Below are positions 3,279 through 39,564 of a DNA stretch of 64,000 bases, in pieces (within the stretch, counting starts at the first letter, position 1; every line of letters begins with the position of its first letter). A model generated the notes under the pieces. It was not told the DNA's origin and ran no database searches. It was given only the letters and a program-made list of their open reading frames with translations. The DNA is from Planctomycetota bacterium. Lineage in GTDB: Bacteria; Planctomycetota; MHYJ01; WSZJ01. The position numbers and the translations under genes were made by a program. The DNA is taken from positions 39,403 through 103,402 of the forward strand of contig JBBTCT010000006.1 of assembly GCA_038060895.1 (NCBI GenBank), read 5' to 3'.

Positions 3279-6077
3279 ATGGCCAAGCGCTCTTCGAAGA
3301 AAACGCGGCGGGCGACGACGAAGCGACCCTCGACGAAGCGGTCCTCGCCGGCGCGCGCGGTTAAGCCTCCCGCGAAGTACGCGCTCGGCCGCGAGATCGG
3401 GAGAGGCGGGCTGGGGCGCGTGGTCGAGGCGGTGGACGCGGAGATCGGGCGCACGGTCGCGCTGAAGCTGCTGCTTGACGGCGCGCCGCTCGACCTTGTC
3501 GAACGCTTCAAGCGCGAAGGCCGCATCACCGGCCGCCTGGAGCACCCCAACATCGTGCCGGTGCACGAGGTCGGGCATCTGCCGGGGGAAAAGGGCAGCC
3601 GCGGAGAAATCTTCTTCGCGATGAAGAAGATCGCGGGGAGGGATCTCGCGGACGTGCTGAAGGAATTCCGGGCGGGGAAGGGGGGGTGGACGCTGCGGAG
3701 GCTGGAGGAGATCTTCCGCGACGTCTGCCGGGCGATGGCGTTCGCTCATTCCAAGGGCGTGATTCACCGGGATCTGAAGCCGTCGAACGTCATGGTGGGA
3801 GAGTTCGGGGAAGTGTTGGTTGTCGATTGGGGGTTGGCCCGGGAAGGTCGAGAGTCGAAGGTCGAAGGTCGAAGGTCCGCTCGGCCTGATTCGGCGGAAC
3901 GCCCGCTCCTTACACTGGACGGCGATATTTTCGGGACGCCCGACTACATGTCGCCGGAACAGGCGGACGGGCGCACAGAGCTGGTTGACGAGCGGAGCGA
4001 CGTGTTTTCGCTCGGCGCGGTGCTTTATGAAATCCTCGCGGGGCGGCCGCCCTTCGCGGGAGGATCGACGACCGAGATCCTCAAGCGCGTGATCGAGGGA
4101 AACCCGACGCGGCCGACCGATTTGCTCAAGACGTTCGACCCCGCCGGGCGCAGCGCGTCCTCCTCGACCGTTCAGCCGCTTCCGGTTTCCCTCACGATTC
4201 CGCCGGAACTCGAAGAGATCTGCCTGAAGGCGTTGGCGAAGGAACGCAAGGACCGCTACCCGAACGCCGAGGCGCTTGCCGGCGAGATGCAGCGCTTCCT
4301 CGACGGCGCCCTCGAGCGCGAGCGGCGCGAGCGGTTCGCGGAGGAGGAGGTCGCGCGGGCGCGGGCGGCGATCGCGCGGTGGCGCGGGCTTGAAGCGAAT
4401 GCACGGGAGGCCGCGGAGCGGGCGTCGGCGCTCAGCCGGGAAGTGCGCCAGTGGCAGCCGCAGGAGAAGAAGATTCCGCTGTGGGACGCGGAGGACGCGG
4501 AAGAACGGCTGGCCGCCGAGAGCATCGGGGCGTTTTCGGAGGCGGACTCGGCGCTGGCGTCGGCGATGTCGAACGTCCCCCACCACAAGGAGGCGCGGCG
4601 GCTGAAGGCGGGGCTGTACTGGGAGCGGTTCCTGGAGGCCGAGCGGGCCGGGCGCGCGCGGGATGCGATGTACTTCCGGCCGCTGGTGGAGCACTACAAC
4701 GACGGCGACCTCGATGCGGCGCTTCGCGGCGACGGCACCCTCGAGGTCCGGACGGCTGCATGGCCCTGCGCGTGCCTGAGTGAAGGCCGGTCGGTCGCCG
4801 CTTCGGACATGAACGTCCTCGGCTACCACCCGTGGTCCGGCCGCCGGCTGGACGGAGCGGAGCCGGAGTTCCTGAAAGGGGCGGAGGACGACTGCGAATC
4901 GAGGCTGCGGGTCCACGCAGCGTCGTGCGCGACGACGGCGCTCGCGGGCGCGCGCGCGTGGGCCTACCTTTTCAAGGAAGAACGCCGGCTTCTCGTGCCG
5001 ACGACGCCCGCGGGAGCGACCGGACCCGCCCCGCCGGCAGAGTTGCTCGACGCGCTCTTCGCCGGCTCGCCGTTCCGTCCCCGCGGCCCGGGTTTGTTCC
5101 TCGGCGAGACGCCGGTCGCGCCGCGGTCCTGGCCGATGGGCTCGTGGCTGCTCTTGCTCGAAGCGCCCGGCCGGAGCCCCGCGCGCGTGCCGTTCGTAGT
5201 CCGGCGCCAGGAACAGGTCTCGCTGGACGTCGTCCTCTACCGGCCGGAGGAAACGCCCGACGATTTCCGCGCCGTCGCCGCGGGCGCGTTCACGTACCAG
5301 GGCGACGCGAGCGCGGTCGGCGCCCGCCCCGGCGAAAGGCGCGACCTGGGCGACGTCTTCATCGCCCGCGACCCCGTGACCTGCGCGCAGTACGCCGAGT
5401 TCGTGACCGACCTGTTCGCGCGCGACCCGGCCCAGGCCACGGCGCGCACGCCGCGCGCTTCCGACAAGTCCGGCTTCTACTGGCCCATCGTCCACGGGCG
5501 CTGCGTCGTCCCCACCACCGCCTGGCTCGCCGCCGCTTCCCCCGCCGATCGCGCCCGCGCCGCGCGGCTCGAAAGCGCGCCCGGCGACTGGGAAGAGCGC
5601 TGGCCGGTTTTCGGCGTGTCCTGGGAGGACGCGATGGCGTTTGCCCGGTGGCGCTCGCTCCGCGACGGGCGGCTCTACACGATTCCGCACGAGGTCCAGT
5701 GGGAGAAGTCCGGCCGCGGCCCGGACGCGCGCCCGTACCCTTGGGGCCGGCGCTTCGACGGCCTCCTCTGCAACGTGCAGGAATCGCACGAGGGCACGGC
5801 CCGGCCTTCGACGGTCGAGGTGTTTGCCACGGACGAGTCGCCGTATGGCGTGCGCGGCCTGGCCGGCAACCAGCAGGAATGGTGCCTCAACGAGCCCGGG
5901 CCTTCGTATCGCGGATGGCGCAGTACACGCGGAAGCACCTGGGCGGGGTCGGCGGCGCGCACGCGACTGGCGTACCGGGCGGGGAACATCGTGAGGACGC
6001 TGTCGTACTCGAGCGGGTTCCGGCTGGCGGCGGTGGTGAAGCTGACGGCGGCGGGGGAAGGGGTATGTGCGTCGTAG
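3279..6077 (+). CDS. Hanks-type Ser/Thr protein kinase with C-terminal FGE-sulfatase (SUMF1) domain
   Basis: Kinase motifs GRGGLG, VALK, HRDLKPSN, DWG and GTPDYMSPEQ. C-terminal FGE motifs PVFGVSWEDAMAFARW, QWEKSGRG, YPWG, SPYGVRGLAGN and GFRLA. Confidence 0.92.
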   Translation: MAKRSSKKTRRATTKRPSTKRSSPARAVKPPAKYALGREIGRGGLGRVVEAVDAEIGRTVALKLLLDGAPLDLVERFKREGRITGRLEHPNIVPVHEVGHLPGEKGSRGEIFFAMKKIAGRDLADVLKEFRAGKGGWTLRRLEEIFRDVCRAMAFAHSKGVIHRDLKPSNVMVGEFGEVLVVDWGLAREGRESKVEGRRSARPDSAERPLLTLDGDIFGTPDYMSPEQADGRTELVDERSDVFSLGAVLYEILAGRPPFAGGSTTEILKRVIEGNPTRPTDLLKTFDPAGRSASSSTVQPLPVSLTIPPELEEICLKALAKERKDRYPNAEALAGEMQRFLDGALERERRERFAEEEVARARAAIARWRGLEANAREAAERASALSREVRQWQPQEKKIPLWDAEDAEERLAAESIGAFSEADSALASAMSNVPHHKEARRLKAGLYWERFLEAERAGRARDAMYFRPLVEHYNDGDLDAALRGDGTLEVRTAAWPCACLSEGRSVAASDMNVLGYHPWSGRRLDGAEPEFLKGAEDDCESRLRVHAASCATTALAGARAWAYLFKEERRLLVPTTPAGATGPAPPAELLDALFAGSPFRPRGPGLFLGETPVAPRSWPMGSWLLLLEAPGRSPARVPFVVRRQEQVSLDVVLYRPEETPDDFRAVAAGAFTYQGDASAVGARPGERRDLGDVFIARDPVTCAQYAEFVTDLFARDPAQATARTPRASDKSGFYWPIVHGRCVVPTTAWLAAASPADRARAARLESAPGDWEERWPVFGVSWEDAMAFARWRSLRDGRLYTIPHEVQWEKSGRGPDARPYPWGRRFDGLLCNVQESHEGTARPSTVEVFATDESPYGVRGLAGNQQEWCLNEPGPSYRGWRSTRGSTWAGSAARTRLAYRAGNIVRTLSYSSGFRLAAVVKLTAAGEGVCAS
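3843..3877 (+). repeat. Heptamer tandem repeat (GAAGGTC)x5 inside the kinase activation segment
   Basis: gaaggtc gagagtc gaaggtc gaaggtc gaaggtc lies immediately after the DWGLAR codons. Confidence 0.85.
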
Positions 6078-6134: not shown

Positions 6135-7091
6135 CTATTCCGCAAATTTGAACGACTTCTCGTTCCCTTTCCACCACGCCTTCCAGGCGGCAGCGCCTTC
6201 GTTCGCCTGCCCCGTGAGCGCCTTCAGCGCGAAGTTGCATTCGTCGCGGATCTTCTCTTTCTCCTTCGAGTCGGCGCCGGAGCTCGCTGAATTCCTGCCC
6301 AGGAGCTCGATCAGGTACGGGATGTTCGAGCGCTCCCGGATGCGCCCCAGCGCGGGAATGCGGTACTCGGGGGCGCAGGTTTCGATTCCGTCCTTCAGCA
6401 ACGGGATCAGCGACGCATCCGCCTTGGCCGCGACGAATTTCCACGCATAGGGCGCCAGCGGCGCCTGCGGGTTGCGCTTCAGCCATCCGGCAAGCATCTC
6501 CTGTCCGAGTTTCTCATCGATTCCATGGGCTTCCTGGATGATGTGCTCGCGCACCTTGAGGCTTTTCCCGTCCATTCCGCGTGCCAGCGCCTGGAGTGCC
6601 CTCGGGTCCTTCAGGGCTGTGACCTTCTTCGCCAGGTCAAGCATCGCTTCCTTGTCCTGGCCGCCCAGCGAGGCCTCGAACCCGGCGCAGGCCACGGCGA
6701 CTTCCTTCCGGGCCTTGTCGTAGCGCCCCCGCGCCATGGCCAGCAACTCGGCCACTCTCGCGGCGTTTCCATCTCCCATGTCCGAAGCGGCCCAGCGCAG
6801 GAACTCCCTACCGAAGCTCGAGAGCACGACGATCCCGGTGCCTCCGCCGGCCCAGGCCGCGACGGAAGCGTCGCTCTCGGCCGCCTTCACGACGAGAAAC
6901 GAACCCAGCTCTTTCTTTACGGCGTCGTCGCCCAGGGACTTCTCGAGCGCGGCCGCGAGCGCGTCGGAACCGATGACGAGGATCGCAACCGGCTTGTCGG
7001 GGACCCTCGCTTTTTTGAGCGCTTCCTCGATCGCGGTCGGTTCACAGAATGCCGGCAGCGCCAGCAGCAGGAAACCGGTCCAACGCGCCAT
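6135..7091 (-). CDS. Secreted protein with a degenerate thioredoxin-like N-domain and HEAT repeats
   Basis: ATG 7091 starts a signal peptide (MARWTGFLLLALPAFC). 'IEEALKKARVPDKPVAILVI' is a Trx-like start. HEAT-like IPALGRI..IPYLIELL, and C-terminal ALKALTGQ...WKAWW. Confidence 0.75.
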   Translation of the reverse strand: MARWTGFLLLALPAFCEPTAIEEALKKARVPDKPVAILVIGSDALAAALEKSLGDDAVKKELGSFLVVKAAESDASVAAWAGGGTGIVVLSSFGREFLRWAASDMGDGNAARVAELLAMARGRYDKARKEVAVACAGFEASLGGQDKEAMLDLAKKVTALKDPRALQALARGMDGKSLKVREHIIQEAHGIDEKLGQEMLAGWLKRNPQAPLAPYAWKFVAAKADASLIPLLKDGIETCAPEYRIPALGRIRERSNIPYLIELLGRNSASSGADSKEKEKIRDECNFALKALTGQANEGAAAWKAWWKGNEKSFKFAE

Positions 7092-7158
7092 GGGCCCCCC
7101 GGAATTCGAATCGGCAGGGAGTATACTTCCGCGACGGCGACTCATTGAGGGAGACGCG

Positions 7159-8499
7159 ATGAAGCGCATTCTGGCCCTGACGCTGGCCCTGTCCTCGCCT
7201 GCGTTCGCCGAGTGGTTCAAGACGATCGACGAAGCCGAAAAGGCCGCCGCGGAACGCAGAATTCCGCTCCTCGTCTACGTCTGGCGGACGGGCTGACCGG
7301 GCTCCACAGCCTGCGGCCCCGGGTACTGGGACGCCCCTGCGATGAAATCGGACACGACGCTGTTCGCGTGCGTGAAGATGGAGCTTGGGGAAGCGTTCGC
7401 GAAGAGGGCGCGATGGGTGTACAAGCCGACGCCCGACCTGAGGATCATCCATCCGTCCGGCGAGGTCCTGACGCACGTCGGCGCGGAACCCGCGAAGTTG
7501 ACCGCGGCCATCAAGGACGCCGCCGCCGGATGGAGGATGGACGTCCGCAATTCGACGGTGACTTTCGAGACCGACGCCTCGGCGCTGGGTTTTGCCCGCG
7601 CGCGCCAGCGCCCCGCCCTGTTTTTCTTCTACGACGAACAGGTCCTCCCCGCCGACCTCGCCTCGAAATTCCCGCTCCTCAAGGACCCCGCAGTAGGCGC
7701 TGCCGCCTCCCGATTCACGGCCATCGCCGTCCACAGGTCCGGCAAGGCGATGGTCGAAAAACTCGGCCCCGAGGGATACCCCTTCATCGTCGCGACCGAC
7801 GCCGACATGAAGCCGCTCCTGCGCTTCCCGGCCGCCGACGCCGACCCCGCGGCGCTGGCGAAGGAGCTCGATGAAGTCGCGGCAAACTTTGAGAAGACCG
7901 TCGCGGGCGAAGCGAAGAACGCGACCGCCAGAGATGCGGCCCTGTTCGGCGCTTCCCTGAAAGGAGATATCGAAGCCGACCGGCTCGATCCGCTCGAACG
8001 CCTGGTGGCCCGAAAGGCCGTCGAAGCGCTTCCCGGCCTCGCAAAAGGACTCACCGACAAGTCGAGGAAGCTGCGGGAACGGCTGATCGCCGTTCTGGAG
8101 GAACTTGACCCGAGAGCCGCCCTTCCCTATCTCCTCGCCTGGGTCGACAAGGAGCCGAACCCGCGCCTCCGCGACCTGGGCTGGGGGGCCATCGGCCGCG
8201 CGGTCAACGTCACGGGCGACGCCGCCGGCTACAAGGCGCTCACCCGCGGCATCCTCTCCGACCCCTACGATGTCGTGGTGGCCCGCATCGCCGGCCTGGG
8301 TTTCGTCAAGAAGGTGGAGGCCGTCGACGGCCTGCTCGCGATCGCCCCGAAGTTCCGGGCGGACGGGGCCGGCAAGGACCCGGCGGGCGATGCCGTGCGC
8401 GACTCGCTGGCGAAACTCACGGGCCAGTCGTTCGGAAAGGATTGGGCAAAGTGGAGCGACTGGTGGCGCGGCGCGCGCGAGGGATTCAGGTTTCCGTAG
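7159..8499 (+). CDS. Probable selenoprotein: secreted thioredoxin-like (UxxS) + second Trx-like domain + HEAT repeats; in-frame UGA at 7294..7296
   Basis: SD (gaggga) + ATG 7159, signal peptide, then WFKTIDEAEKAAAERRIPLLVYVWRTG-TGA-PGS. The frame stays open for 15 codons into ORF 7342..8499, which lacks its own signal peptide. Confidence 0.75.
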
Positions 8500-8550
8500 T
8501 CGGCGGGAACGCGGCCAGATCGTCCCCGCGTCGTCCTCCGCAACTCCGGG

Positions 8551-8593
8551 CAAAATGACAAAGGGCCCGGAAGCTCGCCGCTCCCGGGCCCTT
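8551..8593 (-). terminator. Intrinsic terminator (minus strand)
   Basis: Stem aagggcccgg(a)agc / gct(c)ccgggccctt, followed on the minus strand by tttgtcatttt. Confidence 0.6.
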
Positions 8594-8811
8594 CGCGAAG
8601 GCAGGTTCTGACGGTCAGGCTTTCAAGGGCCTGCCCCGACCACTGAGGGCGTTTCGGCGGCGGCACCTGTCGCTCCCGCTTCATGAAACGGAACCGGTGT
8701 AGGCCGCCAACATGCCCCGCAAGGGAATCCAGCGCCGGTATCCCCTCGCTTCCCTCTGGTCTGGATCACCTCCCATCTGAAACGAGTTCCGGCCATCTCT
8801 CGCTCAGCGCG

Positions 8812-27229: not shown

Positions 27230-27538
27230 ATGAGAAGCCTCCTTTCACTCGTCACCCTGGCCGCGATCGTCCTCGGCGTCTATCACTTCTACGGCCAGTC
27301 GTTCAACCCGAAGCCGCTCGCCGACAAGCTCCAGAACGACCCGATCCTCAACCCGAATCACCCCGAGATCCAGGACAGCGCCCGCACGCTCAACTTCATC
27401 CAGCACGAGGCGGAGATGAAGCTGGCCGAAGCGAAGCGCCTGGCTGACGAGGCGCTCGCGCAGCCGGAAGCGGCGGCCAAGCGGGTGAAGGACGCCGTGA
27501 CGGCCGTTCGGTCGAAGCCCGCGAACAGCTCGAACTAG
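27230..27538 (+). CDS. Small exported/membrane-anchored protein (102 aa)
   Basis: SD ggag + ATG, N-terminal hydrophobic helix, downstream of the sigma54 promoter. Confidence 0.75.
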   Translation: MRSLLSLVTLAAIVLGVYHFYGQSFNPKPLADKLQNDPILNPNHPEIQDSARTLNFIQHEAEMKLAEAKRLADEALAQPEAAAKRVKDAVTAVRSKPANSSN

Positions 27539-27589
27539 GCCCGACCCGACTCGAATCCAGGCGCCGCGGGACAACCTGCGGCGCCTGTC

Positions 27590-28471
27590 TTATTGGGTGA
27601 GGAAGTGCATCAGAACGCCGCTGATCGCGCCGAGCACGCCGCCCCAGACCTCCAGCCAGCCGAGATGCTCGCTCGTCGCCCGCAGGACCAGCTCCTTGAT
27701 CTGCTTATCGGTGTACCCGTCCAGGTTGCCCTTCACGATCGTCTCGACGTCGATCCGCGCCAGCGTCGCCTCGAGCATCCCTTCAGCCATCGGGCGCAAC
27801 CGTTCCTCGAGCGCCTTCGCTTCCACGCTCCCCGCCGCAGGGACGCGTTCGGCGAGCTCGCGAATTCTCGCCTTGGCATCCGGGTCGCTCGGCAGATCCG
27901 TGAGAAACGCGTGCGCCGTGTCCACGATGGCATTGCCGACCGCGTCGGGATCGACCAGCGCGCGCGCGAAAAAGCCCTTCTCCCGGATTCCGTCCGCCAG
28001 GCGCCGCCGCAACTGTTCACGGACGCGCGGACTGCGGACCATCTCGCGCCCGCGGGACGAAACTTCCTCGAGAATCTTGCCTACCATCGTGTCGTCCGAT
28101 GAAGCGCGCCGCAGGCGGTCGCGCGCAACCTCCACCAGCGCGGCCACAAAGTCGCTCTTCAGCACCTGCTCCTTGAGCGCTCCCGGCTGCACCAGCTTGT
28201 TCGCGACCGAGTGCGAAATCGCGGCGATCAGCGCTTCGCGTTTGGCCGGGATGACCCCCGTGAACGGAATTGGGATGCCGAGGATCCTGAAGCGATCGAA
28301 GAGCATCCGGATGGCGACGGCGTTCGTGCCCCATCCGACGAAGGCTGCGCTGCCCACAAGGAACACCGCGCGCTTCCAGGGTTCCGGCAGGGCGAAGGAA
28401 ATCCCTGCCAGCGCGGCGCTTACGATGCCCGTCACAGGTCCCTTCCAGTCCGCTTTCCGGGTGTCGCTCAA
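27590..28471 (-). CDS. DUF445 family membrane protein
   Basis: VGWGTNAVAIRMLF, FTGVIPAKR, C-terminal HLGWLEVWGGVLGAISG. Confidence 0.88.
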   Translation of the reverse strand: MSDTRKADWKGPVTGIVSAALAGISFALPEPWKRAVFLVGSAAFVGWGTNAVAIRMLFDRFRILGIPIPFTGVIPAKREALIAAISHSVANKLVQPGALKEQVLKSDFVAALVEVARDRLRRASSDDTMVGKILEEVSSRGREMVRSPRVREQLRRRLADGIREKGFFARALVDPDAVGNAIVDTAHAFLTDLPSDPDAKARIRELAERVPAAGSVEAKALEERLRPMAEGMLEATLARIDVETIVKGNLDGYTDKQIKELVLRATSEHLGWLEVWGGVLGAISGVLMHFLTQ

Positions 28472-28712
28472 GGCCAGCCAAAAATATCAGAATTCGTCAA
28501 GAAACCGAAAATTTGTCGAATATGCCGGGGGCGCTTGAGCGTTAAAATACAGGAAGTACGGGAAGGCGAACGAGCCTTCCCCCCAACATTGAAAATCGGG
28601 CTGTGCAGGACCGGGAGTCTCACCCCCTCTCAATACCCCCAACGTTCCCTCCCAATTTGCCATCGCAGAGGCTTCCGGTCCGCCAGCTCCACGCCCCGTA
28701 TTTGCGGGGTTC

Positions 28713-28753
28713 AAAAGGCGGCGGCCCCCCCGGGCTGCCGCCACTTTTGTTTG
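28713..28753 (+). terminator. Intrinsic terminator upstream of dnaJ/cbpA
   Basis: ggcggcggccc-loop-gggctgccgcc followed by acttttgttt. Confidence 0.6.
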
Positions 28754-28843
28754 CCGCGGCCGATTTGACCGGTGGCATCGTTCGTACAAGAGGCGGGTGA
28801 CGCGCCTTCCATTTGCAGTCAAAATGGGATTCGAGGGGGAACC

Positions 28844-39199: not shown

Positions 39200-39564
39200 G
39201 GAGAGGGGCGGACGCTCATTCCACAGGTTTTCCACATACGGGGGAAAAGGGGCAGGGTCCCTCTCGCGGCGCGTCATCCGGGACGTAACTCGTTGTAATT
39301 GAAGCGGTTATGCAAGAGCGTAAAGCCGTGCTCCACGCAGCCTCGGCGCTTCGTCTCCAGGCTTGTTCACATTTCGGTCCGGCAGGGGGACTCTTCCGAG
39401 GGAGACCCTCCATAAACGCACCGTCGCATCGCACCCGCACCCCTTAAATGCCCTCTCCAGGGTGCCCCGGGGATGGCCCTGCGGGCCGTTTTGACGCAAC
39501 GCGTCAATTCCGGCGCAACTCACCGCACTTTCCGCACGCTCTTCGCGCGGGTTAGCATCCGGGC

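Follow-up and report, generated by a model that had tools for sequence, protein, structure and literature searches.

What does the region at positions 7159-8499 encode: a short leader and a separate HEAT-repeat protein divided by a stop codon, or a single protein in which that stop, a TGA, is read as selenocysteine (Sec)? The window analysed here is a stretch of 64,000 nucleotides from a Planctomycetota bacterium (positions 39,403 to 103,402, forward strand, of contig JBBTCT010000006.1, assembly GCA_038060895.1, below called G000), and positions given without a contig refer to this window. The G000 assembly comprises 5.4 Mb in 47 contigs and is 86.5% complete. Judged from the reading frame, the homologs and the pattern of selection, the region is most likely one gene, encoding an exported protein of 446 residues with a selenocysteine in its active site.

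The frame that opens at ATG 7159 and closes at TAG 8497-8499 contains exactly one in-frame stop, TGA 7294-7296 at codon 46. It reads MKRILALTLALSSPAFA/EWFKTIDEAEKAAAERRIPLLVYVWRTG before this codon and PGSTACGPGYW... after it, and remains open to the TAG, as a first-pass annotation of the sequence had described. The Shine-Dalgarno sequence proposed there for ATG 7159 is present as well, and is conserved in G002, another genome of the same genus: TGAGGGAGACGCG and the ATG are identical in the two genomes, with 48% identity in the remaining upstream 150 nt (ungapped comparison). Because the Shine-Dalgarno sequence and start are the same in both genomes, and the G002 frame has no Met 5' of the shared start, we place the start at 7159; an alternative in-frame start, ATG 7090, is disfavoured. 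A contig from a different study's run shows 0 differences across 7119-7416 and has the same TGA, which argues that the codon is not an assembly error and speaks against sequencing error, named beforehand as a possible refutation.

The annotation as it stands would have translation stop at TGA 7294 after a leader of at most 45 residues, with a separate cytoplasmic HEAT protein of 385 residues starting at ATG 7342. Open reading frame (ORF) calling with Table 11 indeed returns only 7342..8499 (385 aa) at this locus, and public protein collections carry the gene in this truncated form (P0002); the record of the closest relative is likewise truncated, and one source names it 'MAG: hypothetical protein ... 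Planctomycetota bacterium' (P0003). Yet ATG 7342 follows a stretch, GGGACGCCCCTGCG, without an obvious Shine-Dalgarno sequence, a point already made in the first-pass annotation. The 385-residue product would start partway through a thioredoxin fold and be without strands 1-2 and the active-site helix of the AlphaFold2 (AF2) model; the codons that the annotated model omits are conserved in frame, and all eight Cys-containing paralogs described below are continuous through the region. We therefore regard two separate products as very improbable.

Homologs were sought by comparing the read-through protein with 61 genomes (G000 and relatives), with stops read through and counted. Full-length matches were obtained at 11 loci. 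Three of them contain exactly one TGA, namely those of G000, G002 (88% identity) and G010 (25% identity in the search, 22% in the alignment, A1), the last being a genome of the same order and a different family. The other eight contain no stop and comprise one paralog in each of the eight genus genomes, including G000 itself (C7:229738-231096). In A1 the Sec/Cys column is invariant and the segment W42..W57 aligns without gaps, the motifs being ...LVYVWRTG-U-PGSTACGPGYW in G000, ...VWQTG-U-AGSGACGPGYW in G002, ...LHSDT-U-GICAHLGKSVF in G010 and ...VYIWSPT-C-HVCKGLNEKVW in the eight paralogs. The UGA is thus placed at the attacking cysteine of a CxxC motif, the catalytic position that had been predicted for it: it stands opposite the first Cys of C-H-V-C without a gap, the distant homolog has U-G-I-C, and eight Cys forms and two further TGA forms leave no other residue in this column of A1.

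Among 401 sampled genomes of the phylum, the architecture occurred at full length nowhere outside the genus and G010, and a search of relatives of G010 gave no further gene of the G010 type. A metagenome scan yielded only two loci, both Cys forms, and a scan of genome contigs returned loci already found and none besides. A profile search of 1.84 billion representatives was dominated by HEAT-repeat proteins; among its top 150 matches, the only ones that looked like relatives of the family were P0004 (a Cys form), P0002 (the present gene, truncated), P0023, P0129 and P0097. The protein atlas returned generic thioredoxin and HEAT clusters only.

Comparison of G000 with G002 indicates purifying selection on both sides of the TGA. 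The ratio of nonsynonymous to synonymous divergence (dN/dS) is 0.125 for codons 1-45 and 0.097 for codons 62-446; in the stretch from the TGA to the annotated ATG 7342 (codons 47-61) it is 0.247. For the first 60 codons, the two other frames give 2.7 and 3.8. With a ratio of 0.13 ahead of the TGA, far below these two values, the frame is conserved in the ortholog, and chance does not explain why it stays open across the TGA. The synonymous divergence (dS) between the two genomes is 0.41-0.61, and the TGA is kept in both.

The machinery for selenocysteine incorporation, for which a search of the genome had been advised, is present in G000, with all four components above their curated cut-offs: tRNA-Sec (71.7 bits, cut-off 47; tRNA-SeC(tca) according to ARAGORN), selA (541 bits), selB (310.7 bits, rising to 344.3 when a second piece in that frame is counted) and selD (364 bits). 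As neither selA nor selB contains an internal stop, there is no general reassignment of TGA in this genome. The selD gene (C2:48628-49548, minus strand) does contain one in-frame TGA, and SelD of G000 is probably itself a selenoprotein, judged by that codon.

A genome-wide search of G000 with a local profile, applied to the six-frame translation and to TGA-containing frames only, with TGA read as Cys, gave 16 domain matches, 13 of which have the TGA at the motif. These are the present gene and 12 others, all of the U-x-x-C type (UGYC, UKTC, three UGGC, UNAC, UPAC, UPPC, UGAC, UVTC, UKDC and ULAC). Most of the 12 have signal-peptide-like N-termini, 11 of the 12 have a hairpin of 5-9 bp with its loop at +23..+29, and, on C4, about 400 nt separate one of them from the tRNA-Sec gene. 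The C12 gene (UGYC), the one of the 12 that was compared with NCBIfam, matched no curated selenoprotein model above cut-off. G000 thus appears to encode a large set of candidate selenoproteins acting outside the cytoplasm, at least 12 besides the present one.

The domain structure of the read-through protein is consistent with an exported redox enzyme. The AF2 model built from A1 (mean pLDDT 79.8; block means of 56-83 in the first domain and 85-96 in the repeats) contains two consecutive thioredoxin folds (about residues 18-132 and 136-248), followed by helical repeats up to residue 440. Strand 37-42 is followed immediately by helix 47-51, the first helix after the second strand, with residue 46 at its N-terminus, and Pro92 would occupy the cis-proline site of the thioredoxin fold. 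Against the PDB, the A1 profile matched the first domain to ERp18/TXNDC12 (1sen and 2k8v, 1e-7), 2kuc, AGR2 (9i3f, 2lns, 9ori and 9i3u, about 0.01-0.02) and the C-terminal domain of DsbD, the second domain to 2ju5 (over residues 137-234), and the repeats to designed and natural HEAT proteins (alphaRep/HEAT), down to 3e-47. The repeats also score 30.6 bits with Pfam HEAT_2 (PF13646, residues 292-377), above the gathering cut-off of 27.7. Foldseek returned ERp44 (5xwm) and AGR2 (9i3u) for the first domain, and the tandem-thioredoxin proteins QSOX1 (Trx1-Trx2), PDI (a-b), ERp44, PDILT, Eps1p and YbbN with low TM-scores. The N-terminus, for which AF2 gives pLDDT below 50 at residues 1-15, has an A-x-A equivalent in those rows of A1 that include it. 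The signal-peptide-like N-terminus, two thioredoxin-like domains, HEAT repeats and U-x-x-S motif claimed initially are all borne out.

The C-terminal part of the protein contains a tryptophan-rich motif (window 8350-8496), L-T-G-x-x-F-G-x-D-x-x-x-W-x-x-W-W. Throughout the phylum, the HEAT module with this W-rich end is joined to many different N-termini, in frames of 239-762 aa (e.g. loci L102-L112), and by sequence it looks like a reusable C-terminal module.

Incorporation of selenocysteine in bacteria is directed by a hairpin downstream of the UGA, the selenocysteine insertion sequence (SECIS). The published bacterial model has a loop of 3-9 nt with a G in its first two positions and an upper stem of 4-16 bp (Fig 2 legend, PMC13188914), located 16-37 nt after the UGA with a minimum free energy of at most -7.5 (same legend). 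The best candidate in the present gene, at 7315-7335, is formed by an upper stem of 5 bp (7318-7322 with 7326-7330), a GUA loop (7323-7325), a lower stem of GGC with GCC and an AC bulge. It has a folding energy of -8.6 kcal/mol in G000, where it lies within all published criteria; G002 has a CUA loop and a G-U basal pair instead, and the energy is -6.9 kcal/mol. Its core, CCCGG-GUA-CUGGG (7318-7330), ranks first among perfect hairpins from +15 to +50, with a loop that starts at +30, and it encodes residues homologous to those under the hairpin of G010.

The comparison set consisted of 12 further thioredoxin-like genes in which a TGA falls at this column too, i.e. that of G010 and 11 loci from relatives with the motifs UHGC, UGGC (2), USYC, UEGC, UGYC (3), UGPC, UPPC and UPPS. 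All 12 have a perfect hairpin of 6-9 bp (-6.7 to -13.4 kcal/mol) with a loop of 3-5 nt starting at +27..+29. RNAalifold found no consensus pairs in the ungapped alignment of 12 sequences (A2), as the hairpins are shifted by 1 nt in register; hairpins were therefore scored per sequence, without a covariance model. An Rfam e-value scan of 7200-7420 gave no match to a SECIS model and two matches at chance level (mir-631 and DUF805b), and the fold of the whole segment 7285-7360 is no more stable than that of shuffled sequences (z = 0.54). A long stem-loop at +6..+43 with apical loop CGGCCC competes with the candidate; it passes the model in G000 and is broken at three pairs in G002, according to pairings worked out by hand from the sequences (the computed fold covers G000 only).

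The first-pass annotation had proposed a different hairpin, in which CCGGG pairs with CCCGG around a GCC-UGC-GGC mini-stem. These motifs are indeed present (7297-7301, 7318-7322 and 7309-7317, respectively; the UGC of the mini-stem is the codon of Cys52), but as a SECIS the structure falls narrowly outside the model, with an upper stem of 3 bp where at least 4 are required and a spacing of 15 nt where at least 16 are required. It is probably in the wrong register, and it competes with the hairpin at the position common to the related Sec genes. The suggested comparison of hairpins downstream of the UGA thus had a divided outcome: a hairpin at the shared position was found, but it is a weak one, equalled at about 5% of random positions.

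Several observations weigh against a functional selenoprotein, and a first group of them would fit a decaying paralog in which a nonsense mutation has struck the codon of the active-site cysteine. Conversion of TGC or TGT to TGA takes a single base change, and the resolving cysteine has been lost too (Ser49). The Sec paralog occurs in only two of the eight genus genomes (81-94% complete), and in the tree the Sec clade is on a long branch (1.64); midpoint rooting of this tree does not tell whether the Sec or the Cys form is ancestral. Against decay stand the persistence of the TGA at a dS of 0.4-0.6 with a dN/dS of about 0.1 on either side, the lack of further stops or frameshifts in both G000 and G002, the TGA at the same column in the far more distant homolog of G010, and the ability of the genome to decode Sec. 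A pseudogene is accordingly a slight chance in our estimate.

A second group concerns the hairpin and would leave room for readthrough of the UGA without selenocysteine, by near-cognate insertion of Trp or Cys or by a suppressor, as the SECIS candidate is too weak to decide the matter. The perfect stem of this gene (-4.7 kcal/mol, compared with -6.2 to -13.4 kcal/mol in the others) is the weakest of the set, and in G002 the CUA loop leaves the 5-bp form without a G in the first two loop positions. At that distance, 4.5% of the 1315 TGA triplets in the window and 4.9% of 18,266 sampled positions have a hairpin that is as good or better. Agreement with the general criteria means little, because in our implementation 35% of the same 1315 triplets pass them in this sequence of 66% GC. 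A SECIS at 7315-7335 is therefore best described as plausible. Readthrough of another kind is nonetheless hardly to be expected in a genome with a full Sec system, in which at least 12 other genes have a TGA at a CxxC motif (11 of them with a downstream hairpin), when the position of the UGA, exactly in the column of the redox Cys, is the one that marks Sec/Cys pairs.

Three further points on the same side concern expression and the protein itself. Contigs from RNA libraries of one sample cover only parts of 7947-8600, with the TGA outside them, and are no proof of transcription. Export is read from the N-terminal sequence. The first domain scores 15.3 bits (E 0.022) with Pfam Thioredoxin_7 (PF13899, residues 19-74), under the gathering cut-off of 27, and the paralogs and the G010 form are above it (52.7, 32.2 and 36.1 bits). 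The AF2 model and the PDB profile matches support the fold; the first domain descends from, and would work like, Thioredoxin_7 proteins, its own sequence being too diverged for the cut-off. Taking all of this together, we consider it highly probable, on the comparative evidence, that the gene encodes a genuine selenoprotein.

We propose the following mode of action. SelB and tRNA-Sec would decode UGA 7294-7296 as selenocysteine, aided by a hairpin within the coding sequence downstream, for which 7315-7335 is the best candidate. Removal of the signal peptide would give a mature protein outside the cytoplasm with a PDI-like 'a-b' module, in which Sec46 takes the place of the attacking cysteine of CxxC and Ser49 that of the resolving cysteine, with a lineage-specific cysteine at +6. 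Sec46 would attack a disulfide or oxidised cysteine of a client to form a mixed selenenyl-sulfide; Ser49 would be unable to resolve this Se-S bond, which would be left to Cys52 or an external thiol, while the redox-inactive b-domain and the HEAT solenoid may hold the client or a partner, in the manner of PDI a-b modules and of the single-Cys proteins AGR2 and ERp44. In A1 a Cys at +6 is found only in the two UxxS sequences, with Leu in the other eight rows, so that Cys52 appears only where the Cys at +3 is lost. This particular chemistry is a tentative proposal, to which we give somewhat less than even chances.

A second U-x-x-S form was observed in locus L091 (G053:C96, DSEGUPPSQRL), an unrelated protein with two thioredoxin domains that belongs to another family of the class. 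Its sister genome has a U-P-P-C form (L090, G048:C44, FGEGUPPC), and the occurrence of U-P-P-S beside U-P-P-C suggests that Sec-containing thioredoxin-like proteins have lost the resolving cysteine more than once.

More speculatively, the gene may form part of an extracytoplasmic redox network that runs on selenium, with its chemistry rewired from U-x-x-C to U-x-x-S-x-x-C. This proposal, which we think rather unlikely at present, is based on at least 13 predicted thioredoxin-like proteins of G000 with Sec at the attacking position, no tested one of which falls in a curated family. If true, the protein would be a PDI-like enzyme that has a single selenol, is built on a HEAT scaffold and holds clients, without a described bacterial counterpart.

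The commonest kind of bacterial selenoprotein is the thioredoxin-fold protein whose redox motif contains Sec. The closest curated families are NF041199 (trx7_PDZ_seleno; 'Trx7/PDZ domain-containing (seleno)protein') and NF041383 (VPGUxxT type 2; 'VPGUxxT family thioredoxin-like (seleno)protein'), a third NCBIfam model of such selenoproteins being NF045694 (TsoB). Like the former two, the present family has a Thioredoxin_7-type domain, a UGA at a CxxC-type motif, Sec/Cys pairs and a gene that is usually mis-annotated as truncated; with NF041383 it would also share U-x-x-(S/T) chemistry. Unlike NF041199, it combines this domain with a second thioredoxin-like one and with HEAT repeats instead of PDZ, and its motif is UxxC/S, where the available table of a 2026 review lists CxxU for Trx7/PDZ (PMC13188914). 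UxxS/UxxT motifs and selenoproteins of the Thioredoxin_7 type are already in that table. The read-through protein (P0001) had no match in NCBIfam at E<=1, and the G010 homolog scored 20.5, 16.2 and 21 bits with NF041199, NF041383 and NF045694, far from their cut-offs of 300, 275 and 805. In the available text of the review, 'HEAT', PF13899 and PF13646 are absent, and the family is not in its table (PMC13188914). A literature search found no description of a thioredoxin-HEAT selenoprotein, although candidate lists in the supplements of PMC13188914 and PMC4807772 might include the family. By these comparisons the proteins form a new family, with a thioredoxin - thioredoxin-like - HEAT architecture, of an already well-known kind of selenoprotein; the initial claim of an architecture unlike those described stands for the NCBIfam models and the available review table, but the kind itself was already catalogued.

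By profile and fold, the closest solved structures for the first domain are those of AGR2, ERp44 and ERp18/TXNDC12. AGR2 and ERp44 have a CxxS motif with a single active-site Cys. Like these two, the present protein combines an attacking residue with a Ser at the resolving position, which by analogy would imply mixed-bond chemistry with clients. Unlike it, AGR2, ERp44 and ERp18 contain Cys in place of Sec, belong to the eukaryotic endoplasmic reticulum and have no HEAT repeats, and sequence identity is 8-20%. The succession of an active thioredoxin domain, an inactive one and helical repeats resembles PDI, QSOX1 Trx1-Trx2, Eps1p and YbbN (Foldseek 1e-4 to 6e-4), but with TM-scores of 0.18-0.29 on the query and low identity to PDI-type a-b proteins and YbbN this is an architectural likeness only, and common descent is unsupported. 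The Cys paralogs of the genus agree with the present protein in length, three-part architecture, C-terminal motif and signal-peptide-like N-terminus (30-35% identity over the full length); they differ in having CxxC in place of UxxS..C and in being present in all eight genus genomes, compared with two for the Sec form.

Three features stand out, as far as sequence comparison goes: the predicted U-x-x-S-x-x-C motif, the combination of thioredoxin, thioredoxin-like and HEAT domains, and the number of thioredoxin-like Sec candidates in G000. The family would be a further Sec/Cys pair beside those already listed, and its U-x-x-S variant is a rare one. The candidate set of exported thioredoxin-like selenoproteins, in a groundwater lineage of Planctomycetota, is unusually large and bears on the question why some bacteria spend selenium on redox chemistry outside the cytoplasm, and the SECIS examples from a single genome would be useful for modelling the specificity of SelB in the phylum.

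The locus also represents a correctable annotation error, as had been anticipated for standard pipelines: the public records of both Sec lineages lack the domain with the active site as well as the signal peptide, the listed lengths being 385 aa instead of 446 for this gene and 253 aa for the G010 form, which is called 'HEAT repeat domain-containing protein' (P0153). A further record, P0023 (333 aa), is 58% identical to the G010 form and starts inside the first domain. Both P0153 and P0023 look like N-terminal truncations with the same cause, and the gene for P0023 may hide another TGA. The features of the locus, and the TGA positions of the other candidates in G000, are listed in the table.

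Table. Features of the candidate selenoprotein gene and its neighbour (window positions), and TGA codons of related candidates on contigs of G000
Feature	Position	Strand	Basis
Shine-Dalgarno-like GAGGGAG, 5-nt spacer to ATG 7159	7147..7153	+	sequence, G002 ortholog
Probable full selenoprotein coding sequence, 446 codons + TAG, one UGA read as Sec	7159..8499	+	frame, homologs, selection
Signal-peptide-like N-terminus, MKR / ILALTLALSS / PAFA, predicted cleavage after A17	7159..7209	+	sequence
Thioredoxin_7-type domain, residues 18-132, W-R-T-G-U46-P-G-S49-T-A-C52	7210..7554	+	Pfam, PDB profile, AF2
UGA, predicted Sec46	7294..7296	+	TGA in G002 and G010, Cys in 8 paralogs
Codon of Cys52 (U+6), candidate resolving cysteine	7312..7314	+	A1
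Best SECIS candidate, GGC-CCCGG-GUA-CUGGG-(AC)-GCC, 26 nt past UGA	7315..7335	+	folding, related Sec genes
Pro92, likely cis-Pro	7432-7434	+	invariant in A1
Second thioredoxin-like domain (b-type), residues 136-248, no Cys/Sec redox motif	7564..7902	+	AF2, profile, Foldseek
HEAT/PBS-type helical repeats and C-terminal motif LTGQSFGKDWAKWSDWWRG..F.F	7912..8496	+	Pfam HEAT_2, alphaRep/HEAT
Divergent partial paralog, 318 aa, signal-peptide-like N-terminus, HEAT part, no Cys/Sec motif	6138..7091	-	BLASTP
TGA positions in G000, set 1	C12:200035(-), C34:94934(+), C35:20579(+), C1:199134(+)		profile search
TGA positions in G000, set 2	C39:13284(+), C2:62170(-), C42:31182(+), C4:13148(-)		profile search
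TGA positions in G000, set 3	C5:20068(+), C1:25984(-), C9:315024(-), C5:109563(+)		profile search

A scan of 6900-8750 for promoters and terminators called nothing. An inverted repeat of 10 bp, GC-rich and without a T-run, is located at window positions 8561-8593 (AAGGGCCCGG ... CCGGGCCCTT), 62 nt past the stop codon, and may be a transcript-end hairpin that the terminator scan did not call.

Upstream, the gene is arranged head-to-head with that of the divergent partial paralog, with a spacer of 67 bp, and this pair is conserved in G002 (C35:26446-27330(-) adjoining 27462-28799(+)). The neighbouring protein is 28% identical to the present one over 199 aa (BLASTP, E 5e-15) and ends in the same C-terminal 'LTGQ..W..WW..F.F' module; it has no Pfam match. 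The other neighbours (TPR proteins, a Ser/Thr kinase-FGE fusion and unannotated ORFs) showed no functional link to the gene. The fusion, at window positions 3279-6077 on the plus strand, is a protein of 932 aa with an N-terminal Ser/Thr protein kinase domain and a C-terminal FGE-sulfatase (formylglycine-generating-enzyme-like) domain.

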